Below are positions 3,963 to 46,284 of a DNA stretch of 64,000 nt, one piece after another (the stretch's first letter is position 1; every line of letters begins with the position of its first letter). Origin of the DNA: Squalus acanthias. Its lineage: Eukaryota. Made by a program: the position numbers and the translations under genes. Under the pieces are notes generated by a model. The model was not told the origin of the DNA, ran no database searches, and saw only the letters and a list, made by a program, of their open reading frames with translations. The stretch covers positions 434,001-498,000 of the forward strand of contig JASTWF010000334.1 of assembly GCA_030390025.1 (NCBI GenBank), in the 5' to 3' direction.

Positions 3963-5673
3963 TGTAGAATTCGCAATATATCACGATTTTATAAATAAGG
4001 AGAAAACACATAGTTTCGTTCAAACAGCTTTTATTTCAGCAGAATGCTGTCAGGTTTTCAAAGTGGACACAAGCAGCTTGTAAAATGGCCGCCACGCCTC
4101 GTGGCAGAACATTCTAGACTTTTCGACAGGCAGACAAGATGGCGTTCCAATAAACATTTGTGCAAGATCGATCAAGACTCAGCACATTTAAGATAATACA
4201 CGAGACATCATGGGTTTGCAGTATACACATAAATACTGAAATCGGTCTCCCAGGTGCGAATAAGGGCTATTGTACCAAGTAATCAAGAACCCATCCAAAG
4301 ACATTAATATGCAAAATCCCAACGACTCTACGATGAGAGAGCCGTTAGCGGGTAGTTACAGAAAACATGTGGAAGCCCCAAAACCCCTCCAGGGAGAACA
4401 CCGACCGATTAAACAATGGGAAAAGTATTAACAGGTACTCAGACAATTACGAGTATCCCCGAAACCCATTAAAACGGAGATCACCCTATACAAGAAATTT
4501 GAGCGCCAAACCCTAACAAAAGACAAGACATTAAGGTTGGGCGGGAAAAGGAAGATTTTGCACTATAACTGCAAGCTCCAACCGTCCATCTTTCTCTTAT
4601 CCTCTTATTCGGTTGACTCTTATCCTCGTGGCTGCTCCTGTTGCTCTTATCCTTTCGACTCCTTGCCGCCTGCCTCGTGTCTCTGCCTCTTGCAGCTTTT
4701 AAAGACTGTTGAACTTTACGATCCGCTCGGATCTACCTCGTGGCGTGCCGCGAAGATCTGTGTGGAACTGGGCTCTGAAGCCTTGAAGCGGGCGCACCAT
4801 CCCGAGAAGTCGGTAAACGGTGTTGGAACCGAAGGCCCGAGATGAGATGAGATGAGATGAGATGAGATGAGAAGAGAAGAACACCATACGTATTGCCACG
4901 GTCAGTAAGCTCCGACCGCGCCTGTAGGTCAAATAGACACTTTCCTTGCCAGGAAGACTTCTTCGAGTTTTACAGAACTGCCAGGAAGACTATTCTTCGA
5001 ATTCTATCGCATCAGTGCGAGGGCACAGGAAGACTCTTTTTTGAGCAGTGTCGGAACTCCGAGGACAACACAGATCTTCATGACAGCAGACGGTCCAGCC
5101 TGCTAGCCGGAGCAGAAACGAGTAAACAAGTGGGGTACAGAGACCTCTGATCGACACGTGGGTGCTGCGGTGAAAAACATCCGATCAGAGTTTTCGGAAT
5201 TCTCCGAGTTATCACGAGTGGTGAGCATGAGTCTCGATCCTACAAATCTAGCTTAGGGCAGATATTGATAGGGGAGGGTTTAAGTTTTAAGGATAATTGT
5301 AATGTGTGCCCCCATTTACGATGTGTCGTTCGTTCCTCGTTTCCCTGAAATTAGTTACATAACTGCGTGTAAGATTGTACTGTCATTAATCTGTGCTTAT
5401 GACATGTATTTCGTAATCTTAAATAATATGCAATAAAGATTTTCCATTTCGTACCATTCAACCGGGTCTACCTGAGTTTTACCTCCATTACTGCTCTCGC
5501 ATCTAAGTCCAGTGTCAGAACTGTAAGGGCGAGTGGGTCGAACCACTCACAGGTGTCTAGTGCTCCCAGACTAGCTGGAGACCAGAACAGGCGACAAGGC
5601 CTAACCTCGCACTAGCATCCAGGCTGCACAGAGCCACACGAATCTCACAGGTTCAGAGAGAAAAACCCTTACA
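3963..5673 (+). repeat. Outer provirus 5' LTR (1711 bp)
   Basis: TGTAGAATT...CCCTTACA; near-identical to 24638-26348; TATAA 4564-4568, (GAGAT)n 4839-4872, AATAAA 5432-5437. Confidence 0.97.
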
Positions 5674-10400: not shown

Positions 10401-11818
10401 CGTCTTGGTGGATGTGTTTTCCAAATGGGTGGAAGCCTTCCCCTGTCGAACAGCTACGGCACTGGGTACTGCAAAAATCTTGGTCCGGGAAGTATTCTCG
10501 CGGTGGGGACTCCCCCGTTTTGTGGAGTCAGACCAAGGGAGTCATTTCACCGGCCAGGTGATGCAGAACACCCTCATGCTTTTGGGCATTGAAGGGAAAT
10601 GGCACGTAGCGCACAATCCCCAGTCATCCGGGATTGTTGAACGCATCAACCGGACCCTGAAGGAGAAATTGAGGAAAGAGACTAGGAACTCGCCCCAAAA
10701 ATGGGCGGAGGTTCTGCCTTTAGTCCTCATGGGGGTCCGGGCCAGTCAGTCAAAAAGTACGGGGTATTCGCCGCACGAAGTGATGACTGGGAGGATCATG
10801 CGAACCCCCACCCATGTGCTAGCGCCGGTGCTCACTGAGGGTCAGCTCCAAGAGATAAGCAGGGACAAGTTCGCCCAGACCCTCTTGGAGCGCCTGAAGC
10901 AGGTTTATGAGCAGGCGGCTGGGAACATGGGAAGGCAGCATCAGGGCAATCGCCTGTTGCTGGAACCCCGCAAAACGCGGGAGTGGGAAGTAGGAGACCA
11001 GGTTATGGTCAGAAACTACGCCAGAGTAGGGAGTCTGGAACCACTGTATATGGGACCCTACAACATTGTCGATAAGGCGAGTCCCATGGTTTACGCCGTA
11101 AAGGTACCTCGGCGCACTAAGTGGTTCCACGTAAACCAGTGCAAACTGTACAAGCCAGGTGCACAAGGGAAAACCACAGGGGCAAAACCTGCGAGTGGGG
11201 ACTCGCAGCCCCAGGTAGGACCACAAGGCACACAAGCAGGCAAAGCAGCTTGCATCAGGGAAGGAGACATCCTGGAAAATTGTGAAACATTTTTGTGGGG
11301 TTGGGAGTCAGATGAGGGAGAGTTCCAGGAACTCGAGTCAGATGAGGATAGTGATGAGGACGAGTGGGAATCGGGGAACGCAAGGGTCGCCCCCAATTCA
11401 GGTATAGGGAGGACTGGGGCTGCAGATAGAGATCCACACAGGGTGGACACCGAGGCTGCAGGTCCCGCACACAGGAGGGAGGAGCTAGGGGAGGCGGAGC
11501 CAGCCACTGTGGGACCACAGGGCGTGACGGCGGAAACCTCAGAGCCCGAGCCGCCCGCCTTGAACGTCCTGCCCTCGAGGGAGGTAGGGACTGCGAGTGG
11601 AGGTTCGCCTGCTGGGCCGAGCAGGGCGGTGCCACAAGCTGCAGGTCCCGAGGTCAGGGAGGCGGAGTCAGGGGAGACGGAGCCAGCGACTGTGGTGGGA
11701 CCACAGGTCGTCCCGGTGGAAGTCCCGGAACCCGGTCCGTCAGTCCTGGGTTTCCTGCCCCCGACAACTCCTCGTAGGTCAAGTCGGGCACCCCAGCCCA
11801 GGAAGATGTGGTCATGTC
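7483..11818 (+). pseudogene. pol: pol of outer provirus: PR-RT-tether-RNase H-IN plus acidic/Pro-rich tail; in-frame TAG 8977-8979; tail cut by the inner element (resumes 21344 to ~21495)
   Basis: LLDTGAS, LPQGFHNSP, YVDD; degenerate first RH (LEVAAS..RPVVYSSR..RIARW); second RH (YVDGS, SAQQAEL, SDS, KVKAH, GNQQVDALA); IN H..H..CxxC, IDYIG, SDQGSHF, GIVERINRTLK, GPY. Confidence 0.95.
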
Positions 11819-13568
11819 TGTAGAATTCGCAATATATCGCGATTTTATTAATAAGGAGAAAACACAGAGTTTCGTTCAAACAGCTTTTATTTCAGCAGAA
11901 TGCTGGCAGGTTTAAAGTGGACACAAGCAGCCTGTAAAATGGCCGCCGCACCTCGTGACAGAACATTCTAGACTTTTCAACAGGCAGACAAGATGGCGTT
12001 CCAATAAACATTTGTGCAAGATCGATTAAGATTCAGCACAGTGAAGATAATACACGAGACATTATGGGTTTGCAGTATACACATAGATACTGAAATCGGT
12101 CTCCCAGGTACAAAGGAAAGCCATTGTACCGAGTAATCAAGGGCCCATCCAAAAGACATTAATATGTAAAATCCCAACGACTCTACGATGAGAGAGCCGT
12201 TAGCAGGTAGTTATACAGGACACTTGGAAGCCCCAAACCCCTCCAGGGAGAACACCGACCGATTTAACAATGGGAGAAATATTAACAGGTACTCAGACAT
12301 TTACGAGTAGCCCCGAAACCCATTAAGAACGGAGATCACCCATACAAGACATTTGAGCGCCAAACCCTAAACAAAAGAATGGACATTATAGTTGGGCAGG
12401 AAACGGAAGATTTTGCACTATAATTGCAGGCTCCAAACCGTCCATGCTCTTGCTCTTGCTCTTGCTCTTGCTTTTGCTCTTGCTGCTCTTATCATCGTGG
12501 CTGCTCCTGTGCTCTTATCCGATCGATTCGTAAACCTCGTGGCTGCTCCTGTGTACTCGTAGTTGGGCTCGCCCCTGCTTGCCTGTTGCCTCTTCTGAAA
12601 AGACTGTTGAACTTTCTGATCCGTTCGGATCTACCTCGTGTCGCGTAACGAAGACCTATGTTGGTAACTGGCAGCGGAACCGAAGGCCCGAGATGAGATG
12701 AGATGAGATGAGATGAGATGAGAAGAGAGGAAGACCATATCCATCGCCACGGTCAGTAAATCCCGACCGCGCCTGTAGGTCGATTATCCAAGTTTTCCTT
12801 ACTAGGAAGACTTCTTCGAACTTATAACGAAACATATTGCATCGATGATAACTGGACTGTGCCCAAAGTAACTGGAATGTGAAAACATATCGTATCGACG
12901 ATATTGACAACTGTGCTCCAAGAGTACCTGTTAAACCAACCAACACAGGTCTTCATCACAGCAGACGGTCCAGCCTGCTAGCCGGAGCAGCAGAAGCAAG
13001 TAAACAAGTGGGACCAGGAGATCTCCTGACCGACACGTGGGTGCTGCGGTGAAAAACATCCGATCAGCTATTCGGAATTTCTCCGAGTTATCACGAGTGG
13101 TGAGCATGAGTCTCGAAATCCTACGAATCTAGTTTAGGATAGATATTGATAGGGGAGGGTTTAAGGATTAAGGATATTTGTAATGTGTGCCCCTATTTAC
13201 TTTGTGCCGTTCGTTCCTCGTTTCCCTAAGATCGACTATATAACTGTTTGTAAGATTGTACTGTCATTAATCTGTGCTTATGACATGTATTTCATAATCT
13301 TAAGTATCATGCAATAAAGATTTTCCATTTCGTACCATTCAAACCAAGTCTACATGAGTTTCATCTCCATTACTGCTCTCGCATCTAAGTCCAGTGTCTA
13401 GAACCGTAAGGGAGAGTGATTCGAACCACTCACAGGTGTGTCTAGTGTTCCCAGACTGGCTGGAGACCAGAACAGGCAACAAGGCCTAGACCCGCACTGA
13501 CATACAGGCTGCACAGAGCCGCGTGAATCTCACAGGCTGCGAGACACGCACGGTCAGAATCCCTTACA
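11819..13568 (+). repeat. Inner provirus 5' LTR (1750 bp)
   Basis: TGTAGAATTCGC...CCCTTACA; essentially identical to 19590-21339. Confidence 0.97.
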
Positions 13569-13572
13569 GAAA

Positions 13573-15384
13573 ATGGCGACCGCGGCAGGACACTGGCAGC
13601 GAGAGGGTAGTGTGTTAGATTTTGGAATGACTGTACGAAATGTTATGCAGGAAAAGATAGCAGATTATGTGTTTGGAAAGGTTAATCTAACTAAGAAATG
13701 GATAAGTGAATTGTTAGCGGATAAGAGCCCACTAGAGGCAGCTGAAAGGTGGACAGATAGTAAAGAACATAAAAAGACACTTGAGAAAGCAGTCTGGCTT
13801 ATGTGTTACAAAAGGCAGGTTCAGATTTCCAACCAGACCATTACAGCGCTAGTAGCTCGAATCAGTCATTTAGAGGGAGAAATGGAGGAGAAGGTTTCTG
13901 GAGGGGAGGTGCTCATTAAGAATTTAAATGAGTTACACCAAGAAAGCCAGGAAGTCTCCAGTCACCTTAAAACAAGGATAGATTATCTCGAGTGCCAGGT
14001 CACTGAGGCAAAATTGAATGAGAGCAGGTTAAAGGAAAGATGTAACCGCCAAGCTGCCCAGATAAGAACTCAAGAAGAGAGCTTGACGGGGGTTAGGGCG
14101 GCATATAAGTTGGCCCTTGAGGATAAGTTTCAGGGAGCCGATCATAGCGCCTGCCAAAGGGAGATAGAGCACCTCAAAAAGGCCGTGAACAATGCGAACG
14201 GCATGGTGTGCCTTATCAATCCGTCGGCGCACCAGCCGCTAGTAAATGAGAGATTTAGAAAATCCCCACCAAGTAAAGCAGAAGAAGTAGTAGCCACTGC
14301 GCCCTCCGCGCCACCCAGCTATTCAGAAACCTGGGTTAGGGAGGAAGCAATGGAAGAAACAAAAGAGCCCATTGAAAAAGAAGTAGGAAAGGGATCGTTA
14401 TATCCAGTAACGGGTATTAAAAGGGGCCCAAGCAGAAACGGTGGGGAAGAACCGGGGGATCTCCTCGGACAGCTGGTGTTGCCTCACAGTTCACATCAGC
14501 TGAGAGCTATGATAAATCACGTACGGAAGCTGACCGAGGCAGACGACCCTTCCGTACATTTCAGAGAAGTTGAGCAAGCCGCAGCCATTAACGGCTGCGA
14601 TGATGGGGAAACAGCAAAAATGCTGCTGTTCTCATTAGACAGCTCGGTCCTTCAGTGTCTCTCAGGCGAGAGCAAGAGGGGAACCAAGAGTTATGAGGAA
14701 TTAAAGAATGAGGTCCTGGAAGTGTTGGGGGCGAACGACGAAGGTCCGTTTGCTAGAGTGGGACAGACAGTGCAGATGGAGGGAGAACCCCCGAAGGTTT
14801 TTGCCGACAGGCTGTGGCCAGTATATGAGCGCAGCTGTCTAGGTGCGCCCGAGCGCGAAGATGTGGAAGGTTTAGCTTTAACTCATTGGCTTAGGTGCAT
14901 AATAGCCAACAGTTTACCAGCCGTCAGAGAGCAGGCAAAAGCATGGTTTGATCCCAATGACCCCAACATTACGGAAGAGTCGGTCTTGAATCGACTCACG
15001 TTAGGTTATCGCAATATAAGGGGTATGGCAACACGTCCCCTTAAGGGAAGAGTACATGAGGTACGACCCGCAGCCCCGTATCAAAGAGAGTGGCATCAGG
15101 AGGGTAATCGCGCCCCACAGGCAAGTAATGCTTGTTACGGGTGTGGGAAGACAGGGCACTGGCGCAAGCATTGCAGGAACCCTTGGAAGGATTCCAAGGA
15201 TAAAAATCCCGCGGTCCGAGCCCAGGCGCCTGTCCCGGCTAAGGAAGCCAAGGCACCCACCCCTCCCGACGACCTCGAAGCAGTGTTAGGAGCCATGCGC
15301 AAGCTGGTCTTGAATGCGCGTGGACAGGTGGCGGTCGCAACCGGCCCCGTAGGTGCCGCAGGACTGTCTAATAGTACCCAATGA
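13573..15384 (+). CDS. gag: Intact Gag (603 aa), inner provirus
   Basis: Uninterrupted ORF; coiled-coil, PSAPPSY (14302-14322), capsid MHR-like motif, CYGCGKTGHWRKHC knuckle. Confidence 0.93.
   Translation: MATAAGHWQREGSVLDFGMTVRNVMQEKIADYVFGKVNLTKKWISELLADKSPLEAAERWTDSKEHKKTLEKAVWLMCYKRQVQISNQTITALVARISHLEGEMEEKVSGGEVLIKNLNELHQESQEVSSHLKTRIDYLECQVTEAKLNESRLKERCNRQAAQIRTQEESLTGVRAAYKLALEDKFQGADHSACQREIEHLKKAVNNANGMVCLINPSAHQPLVNERFRKSPPSKAEEVVATAPSAPPSYSETWVREEAMEETKEPIEKEVGKGSLYPVTGIKRGPSRNGGEEPGDLLGQLVLPHSSHQLRAMINHVRKLTEADDPSVHFREVEQAAAINGCDDGETAKMLLFSLDSSVLQCLSGESKRGTKSYEELKNEVLEVLGANDEGPFARVGQTVQMEGEPPKVFADRLWPVYERSCLGAPEREDVEGLALTHWLRCIIANSLPAVREQAKAWFDPNDPNITEESVLNRLTLGYRNIRGMATRPLKGRVHEVRPAAPYQREWHQEGNRAPQASNACYGCGKTGHWRKHCRNPWKDSKDKNPAVRAQAPVPAKEAKAPTPPDDLEAVLGAMRKLVLNARGQVAVATGPVGAAGLSNSTQ
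13574..13591 (+). promoter_or_regulatory. Primer binding site (tRNA-Arg), inner provirus
   Basis: TGGCGACCGCGGCAGGAC, identical to the outer PBS. Confidence 0.85.
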
Positions 15385-16377
15385 CTAGAGCCCACGCAGC
15401 CTGCCTACCTGTGTCCTTTTAAAAGACACGCACAGGAGGGGGTCTGCGGTGAGGAGGCCAGGTTAAAAGAGCAGGCCTTGCGGGAGGAGAACGCCCGCTT
15501 AATAGGGAAAATAGATGGGCTGGAAGGGCAGCTTAGAGAGCAGGCCCTGCGGGAGGAGAACGCCCGAGCAATGGGAAAGTTAGACGTGCTCAGGCTAGAA
15601 GCGCAGCTTAGTGAGATAAAAGCAGCCTACAGGGTAGCCAAAAGCCGGGAGTATGAGGATGTAAACCAATGCAAACTGTACCAGCCAGGTGCGCAAGGGA
15701 AAACTACAGGGGTAAATCCCGCCAATGGGAAAGCACAGCCCCAGGTAGGACCACAAGGCACACAGGCAGGCATAGCAGCTTGCATCAGGGGAAGGGACAT
15801 CCCGGACGATCATGCAGCGTTTTTCTGGAATTGGGGGTTAGATGAGGAAGAATTCAGGGTACCCGGGTCAGATGAGGATAGTGCAGATGAGGATAGTGAT
15901 GACGACGGGTGGTTTCGGAGGAACGGTCCCTTTTACGATATGGAGGGGACGGGGGCTGCAGGTAGAGATCCACACAGGGTGGACACACGAGCTGCAGGTC
16001 CCGAAGACAGGAGGGAGGAGCTAGAGGAGGCAGGGCCAGCCGCTATGGGAGCACAGAGAGTACCGGTGTGGCTCCCAGAGATGTGGCCGCCCGCTTTGAA
16101 CGTCCAGTCCTCAGGGGAGGCAGAGATCACGAGTGAAGGGCCGCCTGCTGGGCCGAGCAGGGCGGAGCCACGAACTGCCAGCCCCGAGGTTAGGGAGGCG
16201 GAGTCAGCGGAGGCGGAGCCAGCGACTGTGATGGAACCCCAGGTCATCCCGATGGAAGTCTCGGAACCCGGTCCGTCCGTCACGGAAACCCCGCCCATAG
16301 CAACTCCCCGTAGGTCAAGTAGAGAACCCCAGGAGGATGTGGTCATGTCCCCAGACTGCCCCAAGGCGGAAATTTAA
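15385..16377 (+). CDS. In-frame post-Gag ORF: pol N-terminal stub + novel coiled-coil + integrase C-terminal tail (no enzyme domains)
   Basis: Open from the gag TGA to TAA 16375-16377: LEPTQPAYLCP (pol stub), EQALREENAR x2..IKAAYRVAK, then VNQCKLY.. homologous to outer 11131 onward. Confidence 0.75.
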   Translation, partial: LEPTQPAYLCPFKRHAQEGVCGEEARLKEQALREENARLIGKIDGLEGQLREQALREENARAMGKLDVLRLEAQLSEIKAAYRVAKSREYEDVNQCKLYQPGAQGKTTGVNPANGKAQPQVGPQGTQAGIAACIRGRDIPDDHAAFFWNWGLDEEEFRVPGSDEDSADEDSDDDGWFRRNGPFYDMEGTGAAGRDPHRVDTRAAGPEDRREELEEAGPAAMGAQRVPVWLPEMWPPALNVQSSGEAEITSEGPPAGPSRAEPRTASPEVREAESAEAEPATVMEPQVIPMEVSEPGPSVTETPPIATPRRSSREPQEDVVMSPDCPKAEI

Positions 16378-16628
16378 GGTTAAGATAACCCAGATACAGA
16401 CCGGCCACATCGCAGCAGTAACAGGCTGCGGCAGATCAGAGGGAAGGGTCAGTGCCCTCCCACCGTCGGGAAGAGCTCGCAGCAGCCTTCTCAGAATTTA
16501 AAGGGGCCGCCCTGAGAACGGGTGGCACTGTATAGTAAGTAGTAATAAGTTTAAGTTTATAGTTCAAGGTTAAGTTTTATGTTTTATTAAGGTTAAGTTT
16601 GTCGTGTTTTTTAACAGAAAACGATAAA

Positions 16629-19140
16629 ATGATGGGAGCTTTAAAGATAGGTTTAGTTGAAGTTTATTCAGCGAACGTTGAAGTTTACGTGAGGCGAGGT
16701 CAGGGGACCCGCTCACCCTTCACAAAAGCCAGAGACTCTTGCGAGGCTGGCTACCTCATTCTATCTGATCACAGGAACCAAGGAAGGATGGAACGAATTC
16801 TAGTATTGCTCGTGGCAATCGGATGTGGATTGGCCTATCGAGGCCGCACCAAGGATGTCGTGGTGTTTGGATGTTCCGGGGACACGGCCCCCATCGCGGT
16901 GGATGGGACCGGAAGACGGGAGGCAGAGGAGACCAGCACCTATTTCCACAAGGGAAGGTGGCCAGGATGGCTGGGAACGAACTCAACGGAGTATTCCAGC
17001 ACATCGGGGTTTGCCTACCAAGAGACTTCTTTACTGTGCCCCAAAGTAAGGATCATCGCACCCAGGATCAGCGTCACCGTCGGCAAACGGATTTGTTTGA
17101 CTTGTAGTGGGAAGGTCCCATTGAGCCGATGGTGGTGGCTGCGAAAGCTGAGCAAAACTATGAGGAACTCTTCGGTCGAGTGGGAACGACTGGGTAATAA
17201 TACCCATCGGACAATTACGGGGACAGACGGACAAGTGAAAGTCTGTTGGGACAAATGGTGGGAACCGGATGAGGGAATTTATGTATGTATGTGGGGGTCA
17301 AAGTACGTTTGCCCCAAAGGCATCTCCATATTTTTCATTAATCAATGGCAGGATAACGGACAGGGGATGAGGTGGGATGCGAGCACCAGGGGGTGCGGAG
17401 CCCCATTCTCCCCGATCCCAGTAAATGCCACTGAGCTCATTACGCGCCCACGCAAAGCCCCGCCCACGATTCCGGTGGTTCTAGCTGAGGAAGAAGGGTG
17501 CCCTAAAACTAGTAAGGGACCCGGGAATGGTTTGGTACTGGTCCCCACAGACCAGATACTATTTCAGGGGGTACATTACGCGGTGGCCTCGGTGATTTTA
17601 AATCTCACTGAGGTGCGGTTACCAGAGTGGTGCCCCAAAAAGACGGAACAGTTGTACCAGGTCCTGTTGACCAAGATGTTCAGACAATTTTACGAATTCG
17701 ATTTCGCGGAAATTGATAAAACAAGTTTGTACACCGCACCACAGGAAGTTTTGGATCAAGTAGGGAGGCAAAGAAGGGGTTTGGTGAACGATGCGTTCAC
17801 TGCTTTTAACACAGGTACATCTGTGGTCAACGCTCTAGACAGTGTGGAGCTGCAGACCCAGATTAATGGTTTAAAGACACAATTAAAGGACATTCTAACA
17901 GATGAGAATAAAGTGGTAGGGTCGGGTCTACACGAGGACCAAGCCATGACCCTCCATTTAAAGGAAATTATAGCAGAGTTGGAGAAACATGCAAAGACGG
18001 TAAATGCCCTGATTAGGGAAGATCGGAATGCATCCGATCAAGCTGCGCAGAACGAGGTGTGCGTGCTTTACGGGGCGTGGTTACTGGGCGAGGGCCGCAG
18101 TAATTTGGAGGATTTAAAACAAGGTTTGGTTCCGTCCTGGATAAGTAACAAACACCTACGGGCGCTCCACCCTTTTCAGAACGCATTAAGCCCGTGCCAG
18201 CTCAGGCTAGCTTCAGAAGCATACCCAGTCCCCGTGGACTGTGGACGATCAAACCATACCATCATGGGTATAGTTTTACGTATGCCGGTTTTGGGCGACA
18301 CAGCAAAGCCCGCCCCGGTATATCGGGTAGAAAACATTGGTGTCATTCAGGGGGGGAGCCCACATTCGTTATGCAGCGGTTCCACCTTACGTCATCCGCT
18401 GGGAGCAAACGATGACAGGTACAGATCTCTCTGGTTGTCGTGGCAGGGGAGCACACATAATACTGTGCCCCCAGCACTTGAATGCCTTTTTAACACCACA
18501 GTGCGGGTTCAGAACGGCTGGCGCCAAGTCCATGAATTGCACCATGGAGGCAATGGCACAAGATCATGTGCCTCCGCAGGTAGCATACATCGGGGGTGGA
18601 ACATATTGTGTTACCACTGCAGCGCAACACTACCAGCATGGAAACCGTAGCCGGTGTCCGGTGAGTGACAGCAGTTTCTGTTTTAAACCCAGGGCGGAAG
18701 TTCAAGTAGCACAACAGCGAATTATCCCAATCCCTGAACCATCCACTGTTCATCTCACAGTAAAAGAGAATTTCACCGACTTGCAGCGATTCGTCGCGCA
18801 TTTTGGATACCTCATTCCCCCTCTCCCTGAACACCTCACCAAGCTTTTGAAAGCCGTCGCGGTGTCACAGAAACATTTTTATACATTAGAGCAGAAAACT
18901 GTCGAAATAGGAACAGACATTTTGGATATAGTAGTTCCACCGTGGTGGAATCTGTTCACCAATATTGAAGTACCTTCATGGATCAGAATAGCCTCCCACA
19001 TTTTAGTCGTATGCCAAGTTTTCATTGTAGTGTACCTATTGGTCGTACATTGTAAAAGAGACAAACGCCTCACCAAGCATGAAAACACGGGAGAGTGGCG
19101 AGAACGTTACGTGCGCGTGCACGATGAGAGCACCGTGTAA
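16629..19140 (+). CDS. env: env of inner provirus (one extra G in a G7 run ~18350 shifts frame; mutation or homopolymer error)
   Basis: Signal-like MERILVLLVAIGCGLA (16788), Ig motif, furin RQRR 17766-17777, fusion peptide and heptads, Cys-rich region, TM ILVVCQVFIVVYLLVV; candidate splice acceptor TTTTAACAG just upstream. Confidence 0.88.
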
Positions 19141-19577
19141 TCGGAAAATGGCGTCACTCCCGCTCGCCGCGTGCGCCGCGGAAGTTTGTACTCATATAAG
19201 ATTTTCAGAGATTGTAAATACGTTGGGAACTCGACATGTTAAGAGTTGGTGTTGATTTATTTTGGTGATGGTGTTACAGTTAAAAATGATTGTTTGGTTT
19301 TGGGTTTTGTTTTTCCTTTCCCTGAATAAAAGATGAATATACAGGTGATACGAGAGGCATCGGCCTGGTTACGCCGGGAAGGAAAACAAGTGGTGTAAGT
19401 TTAAGGGCAAATAATGCCTACGGTGATATAAAATGTAATTTTCTTGGGAAATGAGGACGACACAGAGACCCTAGCTAAGTTAAAATTATGGGATTAATTT
19501 ACTGGATTCGGAGAGAAATCGAGATAATATTGCTCACCACTATGATTTTTGATACGATAAGCGGAGTTATTCGCATC

Positions 19578-19589
19578 AACAGGAGGGAC
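19578..19589 (+). promoter_or_regulatory. Polypurine tract, inner provirus
   Basis: AACAGGAGGGAC abuts the 3' LTR; the same sequence is at 24626-24637. Confidence 0.8.
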
Positions 19590-21339
19590 TGTAGAATTCG
19601 CAATATATCGCGATTTTATTAATAAGGAGAAAACACAGAGTTTCGTTCAAACAGCTTTTATTTCAGCAGAATGCTGGCAGGTTTAAAGTGGACACAAGCA
19701 GCCTGTAAAATGGCCGCCGCACCTCGTGACAGAACATTCTAGACTTTTCAACAGGCAGACAAGATGGCGTTCCAATAAACATTTGTGCAAGATCGATTAA
19801 GATTCAGCACAGTGAAGATAATACACGAGACATTATGGGTTTGCAGTATACACATAGATACTGAAATCGGTCTCCCAGGTACAAAGGAAAGCCATTGTAC
19901 CGAGTAATCAAGGGCCCATCCAAAAGACATTAATATGTAAAATCCCAACGACTCTACGATGAGAGAGCCGTTAGCAGGTAGTTATACAGGACACTTGGAA
20001 GCCCCAAACCCCTCCAGGGAGAACACCGACCGATTTAACAATGGGAGAAATATTAACAGGTACTCAGACATTTACGAGTAGCCCCGAAACCCATTAAGAA
20101 CGGAGATCACCCATACAAGACATTTGAGCGCCAAACCCTAAACAAAAGAATGGACATTATAGTTGGGCGGGAAACGGAAGATTTTGCACTATAATTGCAG
20201 GCTCCAAACCGTCCATGCTCTTGCTCTTGCTCTTGCTCTTGCTTTTGCTCTTGCTGCTCTTATCATCGTGGCTGCTCCTGTGCTCTTATCCGATCGATTC
20301 GTAAACCTCGTGGCTGCTCCTGTGTACTCGTAGTTGGGCTCGCCCCTGCTTGCCTGTTGCCTCTTCTGAAAAGACTGTTGAACTTTCTGATCCGTTCGGA
20401 TCTACCTCGTGTCGCGTAACGAAGACCTATGTTGGTAACTGGCAGCGGAACCGAAGGCCCGAGATGAGATGAGATGAGATGAGATGAGATGAGAAGAGAG
20501 GAAGACCATATCCATCGCCACGGTCAGTAAATCCCGACCGCGCCTGTAGGTCGATTATCCAAGTTTTCCTTACTAGGAAGACTTCTTCGAACTTATAACG
20601 AAACATATTGCATCGATGATAACTGGACTGTGCCCAAAGTAACTGGAATGTGAAAACATATCGTATCGACGATATTGACAACTGTGCTCCAAGAGTACCT
20701 GTTAAACCAACCAACACAGGTCTTCATCACAGCAGACGGTCCAGCCTGCTAGCCGGAGCAGCAGAAGCAAGTAAACAAGTGGGACCAGGAGATCTCCTGA
20801 CCGACACGTGGGTGCTGCGGTGAAAAACATCCGATCAGCTATTCGGAATTTCTCCGAGTTATCACGAGTGGTGAGCATGAGTCTCGAAATCCTACGAATC
20901 TAGTTTAGGATAGATATTGATAGGGGAGGGTTTAAGGATTAAGGATATTTGTAATGTGTGCCCCTATTTACTTTGTGCCGTTCGTTCCTCGTTTCCCTAA
21001 GATCGACTATATAACTGTTTGTAAGATTGTACTGTCATTAATCTGTGCTTATGACATGTATTTCATAATCTTAAGTATCATGCAATAAAGATTTTCCATT
21101 TCGTACCATTCAAACCAAGTCTACATGAGTTTCATCTCCATTACTGCTCTCGCATCTAAGTCCAGTGTCTAGAACCGTAAGGGAGAGTGATTCGAACCAC
21201 TCACAGGTGTGTCTAGTGTTCCCAGACTGGCTGGAGACCAGAACAGGCAACAAGGCCTAGACCCGCACTGACATACAGGCTGCACAGAGCCGCGTGAATC
21301 TCACAGGCTGCGAGACACGCACGGTCAGAATCCCTTACA
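19590..21339 (+). repeat. Inner provirus 3' LTR (1750 bp)
   Basis: Direct repeat of 11819-13568, followed by TSD TGTC. Confidence 0.97.
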
Positions 21340-21652
21340 TGTCCCCAGACTGCCCCAAGGCGCAGGCTCAAGGTTAAGGCAGCCCAGGAAGGGCCCAGTC
21401 CCATCGCAGCAGCAACAGGCTGCGGCAGATCAAAGGAAGGGGTCAGTGCCCTCCCACTGTCGGGAAGAGCTCGCAGCAGCCTTCTCAGAATTTAAAGGGG
21501 CCGCCCTGGGAACGGGCGGCGCTGTACAGTTTATAAGTTTCTAGGTTTATAGTTTAAGGTTAAGAATAAGTTTATAGTATTAGATAAGGTTATAAGTTTA
21601 TAGTTTTAAATCAGGTTACGTTTGTAGTTTAATTTTAACAGAAAATGGTAAA

Positions 21653-24637: not shown

Positions 24638-26348
24638 TGTAGAATTTGCAATATATCACGATTTTATAAATAAGGAGAAAACACATAGTTTCGTTCAAAC
24701 AGCTTTTATTTCAGCAGAATGCTGTCAGGTTTTCAAAGTGGACACAAGCAGCTTGTAAAATGGCCACCACGCCTCGTGGCAGAACATTCTAGACTTTTCG
24801 ACAGGCAGACAAGATGGCGTTCCAATAAACATTTGTGCAAGATCGATCAAGACTCAGCACATTTAAGATAATACACGAGACATCATGGGTTTGCAGTATA
24901 CACATAAATACTGAAATCGGTCTCCCAGGTGCGAATAAGGGCTATTGTACCAAGTAATCAAGAACCCATCCAAAGACATTAATATGCAAAATCCCAACGA
25001 CTCTACGATGAGAGAGCCGTTAGCGGGTAGTTACAGAAAACATGTGGAAGCCCCAAAACCCCTCCAGGGAGAACACCGACCGATTAAACAATGGGAAAAG
25101 TATTAACAGGTACTCAGACAATTACGAGTATCCCCGAAACCCATTAAAACAGAGATCACCCTATACAAGAAATTTGAGCGCCAAACCCTAACAAAAGACA
25201 AGACATTAAGGTTGGGCGGGAAAAGGAAGATTTTGCACTATAACTGCAAGCTCCAACCGTCCATCTTTCTCTTATCCTCTTATTCGGTTGACTCTTATCC
25301 TCGTGGCTGCTCCTGTTGCTCTTATCCTTTCGACTCCTTGCCGCCTGCCTCGTGTCTCTGCCTCTTGCAGCTTTTAAAGACTGTTGAACTTTACGATCCG
25401 CTCGGATCTACCTCGTGGCGTGCCGCGAAGATCTGTGTGGAACTGGGCTTTGAAGCCTTGAAGCGGGCGCACCATCCCGAGAAGTCGGTAAACGGTGTTG
25501 GAACCGAAGGCCCGAGATGAGATGAGATGAGATGAGATGAGATGAGTAGAGAAGAAGACCATACGTATTGCCACAGTCAGTAAGCTCCGACCGCGCCTGT
25601 AGGTCAAATAGACACTTTCCTTGCCAGGAAGACTTCTTCGAGTTTTACAGAACTGCCAGGAAGACTATTCTTCGAATTCTATCGCATCAGTGCGAGGGCA
25701 CAGGAAGACTCTTTTTTGAGCAGTGTCGGAACTCCGAGGACAACACAGATCTTCATGACAGCAGACGGTCCAGCCTGCTAGCCGGAGCAGAAACGAGTAA
25801 ACAAGTGGGGTACAGAGACCCCTGATCGACACGTGGGTGCTGCGGTGAAAAACATCCGATCAGAGTTTTCGGAATTCTCCGAGTTATCACGAGTGGTGAG
25901 CATGAGTCTCGATCCTACAAATCTAGCTTAGGGCAGATATTGATAGGGGAGGGTTTAAGTTTTAAGGATAATTGTAATGTGTGCCCCCATTTACGATGTG
26001 TCGTTCGTTCCTCGTTTCCCTGAAATTAGTTACATAACTGCGTGTAAGATTGTACTGTCATTAATCTGTGCTTATGACATGTATTTCGTAATCTTAAATA
26101 ATATGCAATAAAGATCTTCCATTTCGTACCATTCAACCGGGTCTACCTGAGTTTTACCTCCATTACTGCTCTCGCATCTAAGTCCAGTGTCAGAACCGTA
26201 AGGGCGAGTGGGTCGAACCACTCACAGGTGTCTAGTGTTACCAGACTGGCTGGAGACCAGAACAGGCGACAAGGCCTAACCTCGCACTAGCATCCAGGCT
26301 GCACAGAGCCACACGAATCTCACAGGTTCAGAGAGAAAAACCCTTACA
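24638..26348 (+). repeat. Outer provirus 3' LTR (1711 bp)
   Basis: Direct repeat of 3963-5673, followed by TSD GGCA. Confidence 0.97.
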
Positions 26349-30188: not shown

Positions 30189-30592
30189 ATTATCTTTGTT
30201 TTCACTACAAAAAGCAGATTCCAGGCAACTAACCTTGTACGTTGAGTGTTAGAGAAAGTTGGCTAATGGGCCACCAGTTCTTCAGTTTTCTGTATTCTTA
30301 CCACATCATTGTACTCACGCCTGTCAGGCACATACTTTCCATCACAGCACCCACTTTTATTCATAGGCTGATCTGTTAAACAGGTTAATTCAATGAGTAG
30401 AGCACTCAATGTGCTGATCTGTACACAAACAGCAGTCTTGGCCAGTTCACAAGGGGTGAGAAAAAAGAATCAAAGTTGAGGTGAGTTTTTGTACGCAGAT
30501 TGACATGGAGAACTCAGCTTTGTTGCTGTTGTGAGGTCATTTATTTCTTTCTACATTGGACCCTGGTCCTGGGGTGATGCTGTTGGCACTGA

Positions 30593-31120
30593 CCCTGATA
30601 ATCCTCAATCTGTGTCCTGATAATCCTCAATCTGTGTCCCTGATAATCCTCAATCTGTCTCCTGATAATCCTGAATCTGTCTCCTGATTATCCTCAATCT
30701 GTCTCCTGATAATCCTCAATCTGTCTTCTGATAATCCTGAATCTGTCTCCTGATAATCCTCAATCTGTGTCCCTGATAATCCTCAATCTGTGCCCCTGAT
30801 AATCCTCAATCTGTGTCCCTGATAATCCTCAATCTGTGTCCCTGATAATCCTCAAACTGTGTCCCTGATAATCCTCAATCTGAGCCCCTGATAATCCTCA
30901 ATCTGTGTCCTGATAATCCTCAATCTGTGCCCCTGATAATCCTCAATCAGTGTCCCTGATAATCCTCAATCTGTGTCCCTGATAATCCTCAATCTGTGTC
31001 TCTGATAATCCTCAATCTGTGTCCCTGATAATCCTCAATCTGTGTCCTGATAATCCTCAATCTGTGTCCCTGATAATCCTCAATCTGTGTCCTGATAATC
31101 CTCAATCTTTGTCCCTGATA
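30593..31120 (-). repeat. 22/23-bp satellite array, opposite orientation to the main array
   Basis: Tandem CTGATAATCCTCAATCTGTGTC(C)C; degenerate units resume at 32101-32165. Confidence 0.95.
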
Positions 31121-32097
31121 ATTTTGTTTTATAACGCTCCTATGAAGCACTTTGGGAGGTGTTACTGTGTTAAAGGCACTATATAAGTGCAAGTTGTTGT
31201 TGTTGTTGTGTGGTGAGTTAACTCGTATATCATGATAATAGTGCACCAATTTCACGATTTTATAAAAATGCCTGTCAGTCTCCCTAATGATTGTATTGCC
31301 TGTGACTGCTACATTTCTACACTTTGCTGTGTCCCCACGGTGCCGTGTCTTTCCTCTGCACTGCACTCCCTCAAGGTGTTGGCGACCCTCACCGGTAATC
31401 AGCTCTGAAAACCGGTTTGTCAGCGCCGCAATCCCTGATGACTCCTTGTTGAGGGAAAATATTGGCCAGGACACCGAGAGAACTCTTCGAATAATGCCAT
31501 GGGATCTTTTATGTCCATCTGAGAGGACCTTAGTTTTACGTCTCATCCAAAAGACAGAACCTGCCATAATGCAGCACTCCCTCAGTGCTGCACTGAAGTG
31601 TCGGTCTGGATTACGGGTTCGAGTCCCTGGAGTGGGCCTTGAACACATGACTTTCTGACTCAATGACAAGAGTGCTACCACTAAACCAAGGAGCCAGCTC
31701 CTTCACGGAGCCAGCACAGGCCACATGGGTTGAATGGAGCAAAGGACAGGGGAATGTGATTATATATCTGAGCTTTTCTGAGAGCTTCCACAGGCACAAT
31801 GGGCCGAATGGTCTCCTTCGGTGCCATTGTATAAATCTAACTCCAAGCACTCGCAGTATCGCTAGAGGCGTACAGGTGGTGGTCTCATCAGTGCCACCAG
31901 GAGGACTACACTGGAACTGCAGCATCCTCACTTGCTGCAATGTAAGTTTTTGTTAGATCGTGAAATTGGTGCAACTATTAACATGATCAGTGAGTGACCT
32001 CACCACACAACAACAACAACAGCAACTTGCATTTATGTAGCCACTTTAAAGTAGTAAAAAGTCCAAAGGTGCTCACAGGAGCGTTATCAGACAAAAT
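31121..32097. repeat. ~1-kb segment bounded by ~140-bp imperfect inverted repeats, inserted in the satellite
   Basis: 31121-31258 is the approximate reverse complement of 31957-32097 (ATAACGCTCC..TGCAAGTTG(TTG)n..GCACCAATTTCACGAT). Confidence 0.7.
31445..31700 (-). mobile_element. tRNA-headed SINE (DeuSINE/SacSINE-like)
   Basis: Minus strand TAGTGGTAGCACTCT..GAGTCAGAA..GTTCAAG..CAGTGCAGCACTGAGGGAGTGCTGCA..AAAAGATCCCATGGC; second copy 47652-47910. Confidence 0.65.
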
Positions 32098-37121: not shown

Positions 37122-38407
37122 GGGGGTGAAATTGGGTATCGCCCCGTTTGGGGCACTAACTTTTGAAATTTGGGACATTTAGCGCCAGGTGCTAAGGATT
37201 CTGAACTTCTACTAAATTGGGTGTTAGCACTCAGGAATGAAGTGGGGTGCTAAATCAAGCGCTAATGACCTCAGTGGGGCGCTACAGGGGCGCTACCAGC
37301 AGAGGTGGTGCAGTGTACAGCCGGGCCTTCCAGGCCCAGGCCTGGTTGAGGGTGTCCTGCAAGTCCACCTGTAGTCTCTGGCACTGAGACTCAGCAGCCT
37401 TTCACTAGCCCTGCTTCAGCCACTGGGGAGATACTGCGTAGGAGCAGTAGATTTAGAAATGGGATTGTAAAGAGGAGAGGCAAGGGATTGCACAAGGGTG
37501 ATTAGTCAATATTGTTACAAAAGCAAAATACTGCAGATGCTGGAAATCTGAAATAAAAACAGAAAATGCTGGAAATACTCAGCAGGTCAGGCAGCATCTG
37601 TGGAGAGAGAAACAGAGTTAACGTTTCAGGTCGATGACCCTTCGTCAGAACTAGAAAAAGTTGGAGATGGAACAGGTTTTTAAGCCATTGCCAGTTACAC
37701 TTCATCTAGACTCATCTTTTGTTTCTTAACTTGTCCCATTACCATCTCATTTTGCCTTGCACCATCATCCCTTTTGTCGCTTAATGTCTCCTGTCTTCCA
37801 TCCTTTCACAGACCTTCCCTTTTGTTCCTTCCACCCCTCCCCCTTTCCCTGCCCCTACACTTGCTTAAAAACCTGTTCCATCTGCAACTCTTTCCAGTTC
37901 TGACGAAGGGTCATCGAGCTGAAATGTTAAATCTGTTTCTCTCTCCACAGATAGTGCCTGACCTGCTGAGTATTTCCAGCATTTTCTGTTTTTAGTCAAT
38001 ATTGTTGTTATATATATGTGGTTAATGGTTTATGATAAATTTATTCCTGGAATGTTGCAGATTTTGCTGCTGTCACATTTCAGTTCTGGGGTGTGGTATG
38101 GAATCACAAAGTGATGGAATGATGGCGACATGCTCAGCAACCGGAAAGAGGACTCTAAGTCACAGGAAACGCAGTCTGATGAGGCGGTCATGGACTGACC
38201 TTGCAGAACGCCGATTGAGTGGCTGCCTCCTCCGTCGCTGCTGTTCATTCTCCTGTTCCTCCTGCTCCTCTTCTTCCTCCTCCTCCATCTCCTCTTCCTC
38301 ATCCTTGTCCTCCTCCTCCTCCTGAGGTGGTGCGGCTATGCCTGGTGGTAATGGCTGCGCACTCATAATGGCCAGGTTCTCCCTTTACGACTCACTGAAA
38401 TTAGCCC
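37122..38407. mobile_element. Internally deleted Harbinger element (3' ends of both convergent genes)
   Basis: Start GGGGGTGAAATTGGGTATCGCCCCGTTT resembles the other termini; Myb C-terminus-like sequence on + (~37320-37460); transposase tail on - (NLAIMSAQPLPPG..polyE..DRLIRLRFL*, 38160-38380). Confidence 0.7.
37517..37991. mobile_element. Penelope-type fold-back insertion, second family
   Basis: 15-bp TSD TTAGTCAATATTGTT (37502-37516 / 37992-38006); ~130-bp inverted arms carrying CTGACGA..GAAA hammerhead cores. Confidence 0.8.
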
Positions 38408-38414
38408 TCCTCCC

Positions 38415-41400
38415 ATTGAGGATTATCAGGGAAAAAGATTGAGGATTATCAGGGACACAGATTGAGAATTATCAAAGACACAGATTGAGAATTATCAGAG
38501 AAACAGATTGAAGATTATCAGGGACAAAGGTTGAGGATCATCAGGGACACAGATTGAGGATTATCAGGGACACAGATTGAGGATTATCAGGGACACAGAT
38601 TGCGGATTATCAGGACACAGATTGAGGATTATCAGGGACACAGATTGTGTATTATCAGGTGCACAGATTGAGGATTATCAGGGAAACAGATTGAGGATTA
38701 TCAAGGACACAGATTGAGAATTATCAGAGAAACAGATTGAAGATTATCAGGGACAAAGGTTGAGGATCATCAGGGACACACATTGAGGATCATCAGGACA
38801 CAGATTGAGGATTATCAGGGACAAAGATTGAGGATTATCAGGACAGAGATCGAGGATTATCAGGGGCACAGATTGAGGATTATCAGGACACAGAATGAGG
38901 ATTATCAGGACACAGATTGAAGATTATCAGGGACACGGATTGAGTATTATCAGCGACACAGATTGAGGATTATCAGGGACACAGATTGAGGAATATCAGG
39001 GACACAGATTGAGGATTATCAGGACACAGATTGAGGATTATCATGGACACAGATTGAGGATTATCAGGGACACAGATTGAGGATTATCAGGACACAGATT
39101 GAGGATTATTAGGGATACAGATTGAGGATCATCAGGACACAGATTGAGGATTATCAGGGACACAGATTGAGGATTATCAGGACACAGATTGAGGATTATC
39201 AGGACACAGATTGAGGATTACCAGGGACACAGATTGAGGATTATCAGGACACAGATTGAGGATTATCAGGACACAGATTGAGGATTATCAGGACACAGAT
39301 TGAGGATTATCAGGACACAGATTGAGGATAATCATTGACACAGATTGAGGATTATCAGGGACGCAGATTGAGGATCATCAGGACACAGATTGAGGATTAT
39401 CAGGGGTACAGATTGAGGATTATCAGGGACACACATTGAGGATCATCAGGACACAGATTGAGGATTATTAGGGACACAGATTGAGGATTATCAGGACACA
39501 GATCGAGGATTATCAGGGGCACAGATTGAGGATTATCAGGACACAGATTGAGGATTATCAGGACACAGATTGAGGATTATCAGGGACACGGATTGAGGAT
39601 TATCAGGGACACAGATTGAGGATTATCAGGGACACAGATTGAGGATTATCAGGACACAGATTGAGGATTATCAGGGACACAGATTGAGGATTATCAGGGA
39701 CACAGATTGAGGATTATCAGGGACACAGATTGAGGATTATCAGGGACACAGATTGAGGATTATCAGGGACACAGATTGAGGATCATCAGGACACAGATTG
39801 AGGATTATCAGGGACACAGATTGAGGATTATCAGGACACAGATTGAGGATTATCAGGGACACAGATTGAGGATTATCAGGGACACAGATTGAGGATTATC
39901 AGAGACACAGATTGAGGATCATCAGGGACACAGATTGAGGATTATCAGGACACAGATTGAGGATCATCAGGACACAGATTGAGGATTATCAGGGACACAG
40001 ATTGAGGATTATCAGGACACAGATTGAGGATTATCAGGGACGCAGATTGAGGATTATCAGGACACAGATTGAGGATTATCAGGACACAGATTGAGGATTA
40101 TCAGGGACACAGATTGAGGATTATCAGGACACAGATTGAGGATTATCAGGACACAGATTGAGGATTATCAGGGACACAGATTGAGGATTATGAGGGACAC
40201 AGATTGAGGATTATGAGGGACTCAGATTGAGGATTATGAGGGACAGAGATTGAGGATTATCAGTGATACAGATTGAAGATTATCAGGACACAGATTGAGG
40301 ATTATCAGTGGCACAGATTGAGGATTATCAGGGACACAGATTGAGGATTATCAGGGACACAGATTGAGGATTATCAGGGACACAGATTGAGGATTATCAG
40401 GGACACAGATTGAGGATTATCAGGGACACAGATTGAGGATTATCAGGACACAGTTTGAGGATTATCAGGGACACAGATTGAGGATTATCAGGCAGACAGA
40501 TTGAGGATTATCAGGGACACAGATTGAGGATTATCAGGGACACAGATTGAAGATTATCAGGGACACAGATTGAGGATTATCAAGGACACAGATTGAGGAT
40601 TATCAGGGACACAGATTGAGGATTATCAGGACACAGATTGAAGATCATCATGACACAGATTGAGGATTATCAGGACACAGATTGAGGATTATCAGGAACA
40701 CAGATTGAGGATTATCACGGACACAGATTGAGGATTATCAGGGACACAGATTGAGGATCATCAGGGTCACAGATTGAGGATTATCAGGGACACAGATTGA
40801 GGATTATCAGGGACACAGATTGAGCATTATCAGGGAGACAGATTGAGGATTATCAGGGACACAGATTGAGGATTATCAGGACACAGATTGAGGATATCAT
40901 TGACACAGATTGAGGATTATCAGGGACGCAGATTGAGGATCATCAGGACACAGATTGAGGATTATCAGGGATACAGATTGAGCATTATCAGGGAGACAGA
41001 TTGAGGATTATCAGGGACACAGATTGAGGATTATCAGGACACAGATTGAGGATAATCATTGACACAGATTGAGGATTATCAGGGACGCAGATTGAGGATC
41101 ATCAGGACACAGATTGAGGATTATCAGGGATACAGATTGAGGATTATCAGGGACACAGATTGAGGATCATCAGGACACAGATTGAGGATTATCAGGGACA
41201 AAGATTGAGGATTATCAGGACACAGATCGAGGATTATCAGGGGCACAGATTGAGGATTATCAGGACACAGAATGAGGATTATCAGGACACAGATTGAAGA
41301 TTATCAGGGACACAGATTGAGGATTATCAGCGACACAGATTGAGGATTATCAGGGACACAGATTGAGGATTATCAGGGACACAGATTGAGGATTATCAGG

Positions 41401-44400: not shown

Positions 44401-46284
44401 CACAGATTGAAGATTATCAGGACACAGATTGAGGATTATCAGGGGCACAGATTGAGGATTATGAGGGACTCAGATTGAGGATTATGAGGGACAGAGATTG
44501 AGGATTATCAGGGACACAGATTGAAGATTATCAGGACACAGATTGAGGATTATCAGGGACACTGATTGAGGATTATCAGGACACAGATTGAAGATTATCA
44601 GGACACAGATTGAGGATTATCAGGGACACAGATTGAGGATTATCAGGGACACAGATTCAGGATTATCGGGCGCAGATTGAGGATTATCAGGACACAGATT
44701 GAGGATTATCAGGACACAGATTGAGGATTATCAGGGACACTGATTGAGGATTATCAGGACACAGATTGAAGATTATCAGGACACAGATTGAGGATTATCA
44801 GGACACAGATTGAGGATTATGAGGGACTCAGATTGAGGATTATCAGGGACACAGATTGAGGATTATCAGTGGCACAGATTGAGGATTATCAGGGACACAG
44901 ATTGAGGATTATGAGGGACAGAGATTGAGGATTATCAGGGACACAGATTGAGGATTATCAGTGGCACAGATTGAGGATTATCAGGGACACAGATTGAGGA
45001 TTATCAGTGACACAGATTGAGGATTATCAGGGACACAGATTGAGGATTATCAGGGACACAGATTGAGGATTATCAGGGACACAGATTGAGGATTATCAGG
45101 ACACAGATTGAGGATTATCACAGACTGAGATTGAGGATTATCAGGGACACAGATTGAGGATTATCAGGGACACAGATTGAGGATTATCAGGGACACAGAT
45201 TGAGGATTATCAGGACACAGATTGAGGATTATCAGGACACAGTTTGAGGATTATCAGGGACACAGATTGAGGAATATCAGGGAGACAGATTGAGGATTAT
45301 CAGGAACACAGATTGAGGATTATCAGGGACACAGATTGAAGATTATCAGGGACACAGATTGAGGATTATCAAGGACACAGATTGAGGATTATCAGGGACA
45401 CAGATTGAGGATTATCAGGGAGACAGATTGAGGATTATCAGGGACACAGATTGAGGATTATCAGGACACAGATTGAAGATCATCAGGACACAGATTGAGG
45501 ATTATCAGGACACAGATTGAGGATTATCAGGGACACAGATTGAGGATTATCAGGGACACAGATTGAGGATTATCAGGGGCACAGATTGAGGATTATCAGG
45601 GACACAGATTGAGGATTATCAGGGATACAGATTGAGGATTATCAGGGCCATAGATTGAGGATTATCAGGAACACAGATTGAGGATTATCACAGACACAGA
45701 TTGAGGATTATCAGGGACACAGATTGAGGATTTTCAGGACACAGATTGAGGTTTATCAGGACACAGATTGAGGATCATCAGGGTCACAGATTGAGGATTA
45801 TCAGGGACACAGATTGAGGATTATCAGGGACACAGATTGAGCATTATCAGGGAGACAGATTGAGGATTATCAGGGACACAGATTGAGGATTATCAGGACA
45901 CAGATTGAAGATCATCAGGACACAGATTGAGGATTATCAGGACACAGATTGAGGATTATCAGGGACACAGATTGAGGATTATCAGGGACACAGATTGAGG
46001 ATTATCAGGGGCACAGATTGAGGATTATCAGGGACACAGATTGAGGATTATCAGGGACACAGATTGAGGATTATCAGGGCCATAGATTGAAGATTATCAG
46101 GAACACAGATTGAGGATTATCACAGACACAGATTGAGGATTATCAGGGACACAGATTGAGGATTATCAGGGACACAGATTGAGGATTATCACAGATTGAG
46201 ATTGAGGATTATCAGCGACACAGATTGAGGATTATCACAGACTGAGATTGAGGATTATCAGGGACACAGATTGGGGATCATCAG
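38415..46284 (+). repeat. ~7.9-kb tandem satellite, unit GATTGAGGATTATCA(G)GGACACA (22/23 bp)
   Basis: Continuous head-to-tail units with point variants and no spacers. Confidence 0.98.

Follow-up and report, generated by a model that had tools for sequence, protein, structure and literature searches.

A pol-less retroviral form interleaved with its pol-bearing siblings in the genome of Squalus acanthias

Defective forms of retroviruses are usually regarded either as offshoots that do not last or as non-autonomous families in their own right. EAV-HP is reportedly a precedent for a pol-deleted form that keeps gag and env, one that our literature listing did not confirm, and Du et al. in 2010 reportedly described in soybean a partnership of autonomous and non-autonomous elements based on swapping of long terminal repeats (LTRs). 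Here, we analyzed a 64,000-nucleotide stretch of the Squalus acanthias genome (assembly GCA_030390025.1, contig JASTWF010000334.1, positions 434,001 to 498,000; referred to below as the window), in which a complete provirus that has gag and env and is devoid of pol sits inside an older, pol-bearing (pol+) provirus of the same family. In the pol position, behind the gag stop codon, the inner provirus carries a cassette of ~0.3 kb consisting of a protease stub and a foreign Gag-like coiled coil. The pol-less form is high-copy, recently spreading, and non-autonomous, and it retains gag and env. It is not a separate satellite lineage: a satellite virus has a distinct genome that evolves apart, and the pol-less form does not. 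The interest lies in the population behavior of the cassette rather than in the nest, as thousands of young proviruses in a dated series record cheater and cooperator alleles segregating in one recombining population. Stable defective-interfering dynamics, the use of Gag, Env, and Pol in cis versus in trans, and recombination between distant families can thereby be measured from genomes alone.

The non-autonomous partner of the soybean pair is said to be kept compatible with its helper, with recombination between the two, which is a likeness to the form described here; the soybean partners are reportedly internally distinct, whereas here the cassette alone differs. The same likeness and the same difference apply to mouse ETn/MusD, as far as the available text of PMC6466679 goes. 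In behavior, the closest described systems are the mouse IAP 1Δ1 element and a canid env allele. In the available parts of PMC6466679, an internal deletion in IAP 1Δ1 is described as creating an in-frame, novel gag-pol fusion open reading frame (ORF) that acts in cis, and the element, which needs proteins supplied in trans, is described as highly successful. The form in the window is likewise a non-autonomous endogenous retrovirus that has kept an in-frame fusion ORF, the product of which is predicted. The two differ in that IAP is without env and 1Δ1 loses part of gag, whereas gag and env are whole here; moreover, here a foreign Gag-like sequence behind a readthrough stop replaces pol, and it does so in backbones that have diverged by more than 20% as well as in another family. 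The canid CfERV-Fc1(a) envΔ1073 allele, for which spread by template switching has been proposed, is a frameshifting env deletion found in 8 of 19 proviruses and skewed to old loci, according to the accessible portion of PMC6407205. Here, in contrast, pol is replaced in a frame-preserving manner by a captured insert in ~1,000 mostly very young copies.

In kinship, the closest systems are the lokiretroviruses and the zebrafish BHIKHARI elements. Lokiretroviruses have a gag-pol-env layout, a tether and second RNase H, and an F-like Env with a furin site (RXKR), a signal peptide, and a transmembrane segment, similar to the Mononegavirales fusion glycoprotein (PF00523). Their RT groups in a clade sister to Retroviridae, their integrase lies near CGIN1/NYNRIN, and the CA fold of their Gag is like that of MuLV/Ty3. 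The available sections of the report by Wang and Han (PMC7947760) describe no pol-less gag-plus-env form, and the host classes that they list do not include cartilaginous fishes. BHIKHARI Bik-1 and Bik-2 are relatives of lokiretroviruses that are non-autonomous, were active recently, and have an intact coiled-coil Gag but lack pol. In the available text they are gag-only elements (Bik-2 has neither pol nor env, and Bik-1 contains one ORF) for which no partner was found in the reference genome (bioRxiv 10.1101/2024.03.25.586437). Here, unlike in BHIKHARI, env is retained and matching pol+ partners are abundant. PMC12440569, PMC6894440, and PMC8672886, each available in part, provide context. 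A literature search that left most subscription papers outside its reach found no account of the present family, and none of a cassette that takes the place of pol, persists along a ladder of backbones, and crosses families.

The evidence that pol-less and pol+ copies form one population comes from direct comparison of sampled copies, with rows covering <80% of a region excluded. The closest sampled pol+ copies are 99.3% identical to the window element in gag, 99.4% in env, 99.8% in the integrase tail, 99.3% in U3, and 99.7% in U5. The gag tree, built from 39 pol-less and 18 pol+ rows (57 in total), has the shape of a ladder along which both forms alternate, with 16 label changes compared to 15.7 after shuffling, and monophyly of the pol-less copies is rejected (p-AU, 0.004). 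Across U3, U5, gag, tail, and env, no fixed difference between the forms was found in the sampled copies, and shared polymorphisms number 52 to 428 per region. Fixed differences are confined to positions +20 and +22 past the gag stop, and the switch from pol+-type to pol-less-type bases lies within ~15 nucleotides (nt) of the stop in three copies. The forms can be told apart only by the ~0.3-kb cassette and ~20 linked bases. A search for pol+ copies with the pol-less-type protease stub gave 0 matches because the stub bases are linked to the cassette.

Ladder position correlates with LTR age (Spearman coefficient of −0.65, n = 46; −0.61 for pol-less and −0.71 for pol+ copies; the rows are non-independent). 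Family-wide, gag has changed by >20% along the ladder, yet LTR pairs span only about 1.4% to 0%. Synonymous divergence is 0.21 to 0.28 in gag, 0.13 to 0.18 in env, 0.08 in the pol core, and 0.06 in the insert, values that derive from differing sets of copies. That the ladder is purely an artifact of block mosaicism was considered and rejected, as differences between rungs are mostly spread along gag (chi-square of about 20 with 8 degrees of freedom in two of seven pol+ pairs). One pol-less copy (L096) is a clear block recombinant, in which ~1 kb of gag, together with a portion of the LTR, derives from a source that is more divergent (chi-square of 106 for clustering).

A search of the whole 3.7-Gb assembly for the exact 24-base 5′ junction of the pol-less form returned 955 occurrences (control, 0). 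The insert-core motif occurs 1,385 times, in part twice per copy, and all 20 of the 20 insert-core loci without the exact junction were still pol-less, so 955 is a lower bound. For pol+ copies, a degenerate protease-start motif has 2,125 occurrences, a loose pattern by which distant families are also picked up (1 of 20 copies in the sample). Forty junction copies were taken in list order from the two largest contigs; 31 of them were measurable at both LTRs and 9 were not. Each of the 31 sits at its own site, 28 with a perfect 4-bp target site duplication (TSD) and 3 (L071, L080, and L097) with a 3-bp duplication instead. Median LTR divergence is 0.06% (n = 32, including the window copy). Of the 40 copies, 30 have an open gag frame of 600 codons or more, 25 an open env frame of 810 or more, and 34 a readthrough frame of 366 to 398; pol is open for 1,494 to 1,511 codons in 11 of 20 pol+ copies, taken unselected in list order, and these siblings share LTR ends and primer binding site (PBS) with the pol-less form. 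The 5′ junction is bridged, and the pol+ continuation is also present, in contigs of runs labeled as three other organisms (three studies), which may reflect close relatives or contamination; no RNA holder is among the records listed.

The original prediction, made from the window alone, had proposed a persistent non-autonomous lineage and had named as expected support many copies with their own TSDs and an intact-pol helper with the same LTR ends and PBS. Both exist, and the non-autonomous form with its near-identical LTRs stands; the distinct lineage does not, as the form is interleaved with pol+ copies. The finding named in advance as fatal to the idea, a pol-less structure occurring only once, is contradicted by its 955 recurrences.

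As separate observations on genomic arrangement, five adjacent pairs of proviruses within 9 kb, with a common LTR, occur in tandem among the first 100 junction matches, and such tandems occur among pol+ matches too. There is also a six-unit proviral array with a 6.4-kb period. The loci noted for these arrangements are C1:143657925-143673389, C3:64286105-64318214, and L152-L154.

The inner provirus of the window (positions 11819 to 21339) has two 1,750-bp LTRs that differ at a single position (12398/20169), TG..CA termini, and TGTC on both flanks. The gag frame has no stop across 13501 to 15384, and a Pfam search of the inner ORFs gave no match for protease (PR), reverse transcriptase (RT), RNase H (RH), or integrase (IN), whereas the outer copy has all four. 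On these points the original prediction was accurate; env, which it described as near-intact, is broken into two overlapping ORFs by a frameshift near 18350. Past the gag TGA, the readthrough frame is open for 330 amino acids (aa) (15385 to 16377), running from the protease stub through a 244-bp insert into the integrase C-terminal tail; it is shorter in this copy than the 366 to 398 aa of most copies. The zf-CCHC Pfam match is weak and comes from relatives. The assignment of the PBS to tRNA-Arg(UCG) was confirmed by 435 genomic matches and by ARAGORN on both of two loci. Many of the 435 matches lie in tandem arrays with a period of ~1,623 bp (C26:38.99-41.88 Mb). The features are as follows.

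11815 to 11818, + strand: left TSD (4 bp), falling within the integrase-tail region of the outer copy
11819 to 13568, + strand: inner 5′ LTR, 1,750 bp, with 1 mismatch to the 3′ LTR
13574 to 13590, + strand: PBS, complementary to the 3′ end of host tRNA-Arg(UCG), overlapping the first in-frame gag ATG (13573)
13573 to 15384, + strand: gag, open, with coiled coil, CA-like region, and CCHC knuckle; stop TGA followed by CTAG
15385 to 15416, + strand: protease stub, 11 codons, with some bases that are fixed in pol-less copies and missing from pol+ copies
15417 to 15660, + strand: pol-replacing insert, 244 bp, in frame, a piece of a foreign Gag coiled coil with an internal duplication; missing from the outer copy
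15661 to 16377, + strand: integrase C-terminal tail, with a ratio of nonsynonymous to synonymous divergence (dN/dS) of about 1
16629 to 19140, + strand: env, F-protein-like, with a furin-type RQRR site (17766 to 17777) and the frameshift near 18350
19578 to 19589, + strand: polypurine tract
19590 to 21339, + strand: inner 3′ LTR
21340 to 21343, + strand: right TSD (4 bp)

Older copies of the pol-less form carry a longer, unduplicated cassette. In a 5-sequence search, the oldest cassette is 50% identical over 86 aa (E value, 3e-23) to Gag of a distant family, in the part spanning its coiled coil and His/Cys region, compared to a poorer 33% for the Gag of the main family itself. L103 and L123 represent a third, more distant pol-bearing family (pol 73% and env 72% identical to the outer copy), the Gag of which matches the cassette best. 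In a second family, the cassette is 94 to 96% identical over 430 nt and the last 39 nt of gag are 90 to 97% identical, while the gag body is 66% identical and the downstream tails are unalignable (three pairs). The cassette is present in all 30 second-family copies examined of 49 pattern matches (clearly so in 29), and all 30 are pol-less; their LTR pairs are 1.0 to 2.6% apart in partial alignments, a range that overlaps that of the oldest main-family copies. The cassette has probably moved between viral backbones. As old main-family pol-less copies have the gag end of the second family, and younger ones that of their pol+ siblings, the jump appears to have been from the second family into the main family, with the gag end hitchhiking and then eroding.

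Of 85 junction segments found, 3 were unanchored; among the 82 anchored ones (30 are top-similarity matches including the window, and one locus is counted twice), the cassette continues the frame past the gag stop in 80, as it does in 12 of 13 older main-family copies. Its common length variants, of which there are at least five, are all in frame, while out-of-frame cases are private to single copies, and the stop context TGA-CTAG/CTGG is retained across copies. Were frames random, five independent in-frame events would have a probability of about 0.004, but repeat-mediated change of a coiled coil is itself biased toward keeping frame. Pairwise dN/dS is 0.27 for gag and 0.10 for env in pol-less copies, 0.29 and 0.11 in pol+ copies, and 0.14 in the pol core. 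Ratios below 1 in gag and env, which had been put forward as a sign of a spreading satellite, were thus obtained, but they are uninformative about selection in the pol-less form because these genes are common to pol+ copies; this is a warning that, where a form is non-autonomous, the dN/dS of its genes can be a legacy of the helper. No two pol-less copies in the sample have in common a frame-breaking indel or a premature stop of gag or env, an absence that is compatible with either a need in cis or constant refreshment. Insert and tail dN/dS do not support selection on the sequence of the fusion protein.

We consider it very probable that the pol-less form borrows Pol from co-expressed siblings and exchanges with them everything except the cassette. 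Pol-less RNA would be packaged with Pol from pol+ siblings by trans-complementation and co-packaging, and template switching in the mixed particles would keep the pol-less backbone current, the cassette excepted. The readthrough frame may be retained as a cis-acting fusion protein, in the fashion of IAP 1Δ1; alternatively, readthrough may shield the RNA from nonsense-mediated decay, a protective role described in the available part of PMC5360307. More speculatively, and with the balance of our judgment leaning against it, the unit of parasitism could be a selfish allele of ~0.3 to 0.45 kb, that is, a captured foreign Gag coiled coil in the pol slot that, through a readthrough Gag fusion, favors its own RNA in cis, has existed alongside the pol+ allele for as long as the history of this fast-evolving enveloped retrovirus is recorded, and has crossed families 34% apart.

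The arrangement first envisaged, in which an independent satellite lineage split once from a helper family and evolved separately, with the enclosing copy as the helper or its representative, would account for the one common junction, the high copy number, and the 88% identity of gag and LTR to the outer copy. Monophyly is nonetheless rejected, nothing beyond the cassette is fixed, pol+ copies >99% alike exist, and the enclosing copy is broken and, by LTR divergence, about ten times older; this refutes the scheme for the sampled copies and leaves it highly improbable overall. A one-off rearrangement or a misassembly, which the single-copy nest junction on a small contig might suggest, is scarcely credible, given that the structure recurs 955 times, on the largest contigs and in independent runs, and that the same 4-bp duplication stands at both ends of the nest. 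Spread of the cassette after integration, by ectopic gene conversion replacing pol in resident proviruses, would explain the interleaving and the linked bases beside the junction. It would, however, demand ~1,000 swaps of 3.6 kb for 0.25 to 0.45 kb, even in copies with identical LTRs, and cassette variants track backbone age, with the long, unduplicated cassette and the foreign end of gag both located on the oldest backbones; we regard it as improbable. A further alternative accepts the same population structure and concerns the function step only: the readthrough frame could be a passive remnant in a shorter genome that is copied efficiently through its intact cis signals. Shortened or shifted frames, present in the window copy and in a few more of the young copies, agree with this, as do the insert dN/dS, not significantly below 1, and the tail value of about 1, whereas the in-frame common length variants, the retained stop context, and the private nature of out-of-frame cases do not. 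We place this alternative a little short of even chances and, from the sequence pattern, slightly favor selection on the readthrough frame.

Several points weigh against borrowing of Pol with exchange between siblings, and against a selected, transferred cassette. Sampling was by exact patterns and took in ~60 copies of the pol-less form and 20 of the pol+ form, all on two chromosomes; recombination makes the gag tree approximate and the pairwise statistics non-independent; and gene conversion would likewise predict linked bases beside the junction. Of 23 anchored cassettes in the second family, which is older, 19 keep the frame and 4 do not, and repeat- or microhomology-driven change in a coiled coil may yield in-frame outcomes without selection. 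Insert dN/dS is 0.64 with a bootstrap range of 0.36 to 1.36, which is not significant, and tail dN/dS is about 1 in both forms. Among 30 of the 49 second-family matches there is no pol-bearing member, and no intact donor gag was found, which leaves the hitchhiked gag end as the basis for the proposed direction of the jump; LTR ages of the main- and second-family groups overlap. In the search for the donor, 11 long-variant-motif loci and the 20 insert-core loci without the exact junction are all carriers of the pol-less cassette.

The provirus that encloses the window element is the following.

3964 to 26348, + strand: outer provirus of the same family, older and pol-bearing, with LTRs at 3964 to 5673 and 24639 to 26348 and TSD GGCA

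Its LTRs differ at 13 of 1,710 positions (0.76%), and it is broken by a frameshift in gag, a stop in pol, and a stop in env. Inner and outer copies are 94 to 98% identical in env, 88% in LTR and gag, and 82% in the pol tail, in keeping with the divergence of gag and LTR that had been noticed from the sequence. The enclosing copy is not the helper that it had been suggested to be, as other pol+ copies are 99.3 to 99.8% alike; it is an earlier rung on the family ladder, and the nesting in the window is incidental. The junction of the nest has a single occurrence in the assembly. As regards targeted insertion into relatives, one of the 40 sampled pol-less copies sits within a pol+ copy. No contig bridging the nest junction was found among those listed from public runs, in which repeat contigs are short and hence uninformative. 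Other nests include L062, a pol-less copy nested in the gag of a pol+ copy, and L173 and L168, with a copy reversed within the env of another and a reversed LTR within a gag, respectively.

The backbone of the family is lokiretrovirus-like in domain layout, with Env and RT placement suggestive. The pol+ siblings have Pfam matches to RVP, RVT_1, RT_RNaseH, RNase_H, Integrase_H2C2, and rve in a gag-pol-env arrangement like that of lokiretroviruses; the window element itself is without pol. Among named proteins, the best matches to Pol are NYNRIN-like, from frogs and coelacanth (48 to 49%), and Pol matches in the PDB are divided among Ty3, MLV, and foamy virus Pol. Gag gave no Pfam CA match. For Env, the outer env half matches PF00523 with an E value of 0.054, and three other env sequences gave no match; ESM features are 0.93 to 0.94 similar to PF00523/Baculo_F clusters, with 10 of 10 in one family or clan, which is a lead. 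A PDB profile search with Env gave no match, and its AlphaFold model was unusable (pLDDT, 30), the transmembrane helix being the sole confident part. The Env cleavage site is RQRR, compared to RXKR in lokiretroviruses, with hydrophobic N- and C-terminal stretches visible by eye, and the closest relatives of Env come from two cartilaginous fishes, a skate and a sawshark. A weak Ig_3 signal is present in the N-terminal half of Env (E values, 0.25 to 0.47; window env in the region 16788 to 17400, L062, and L150). Elsewhere in the window, 23-bp tandem repeat arrays lie in opposite orientations at 30545 to 31137 and at about 38360 to 46000.

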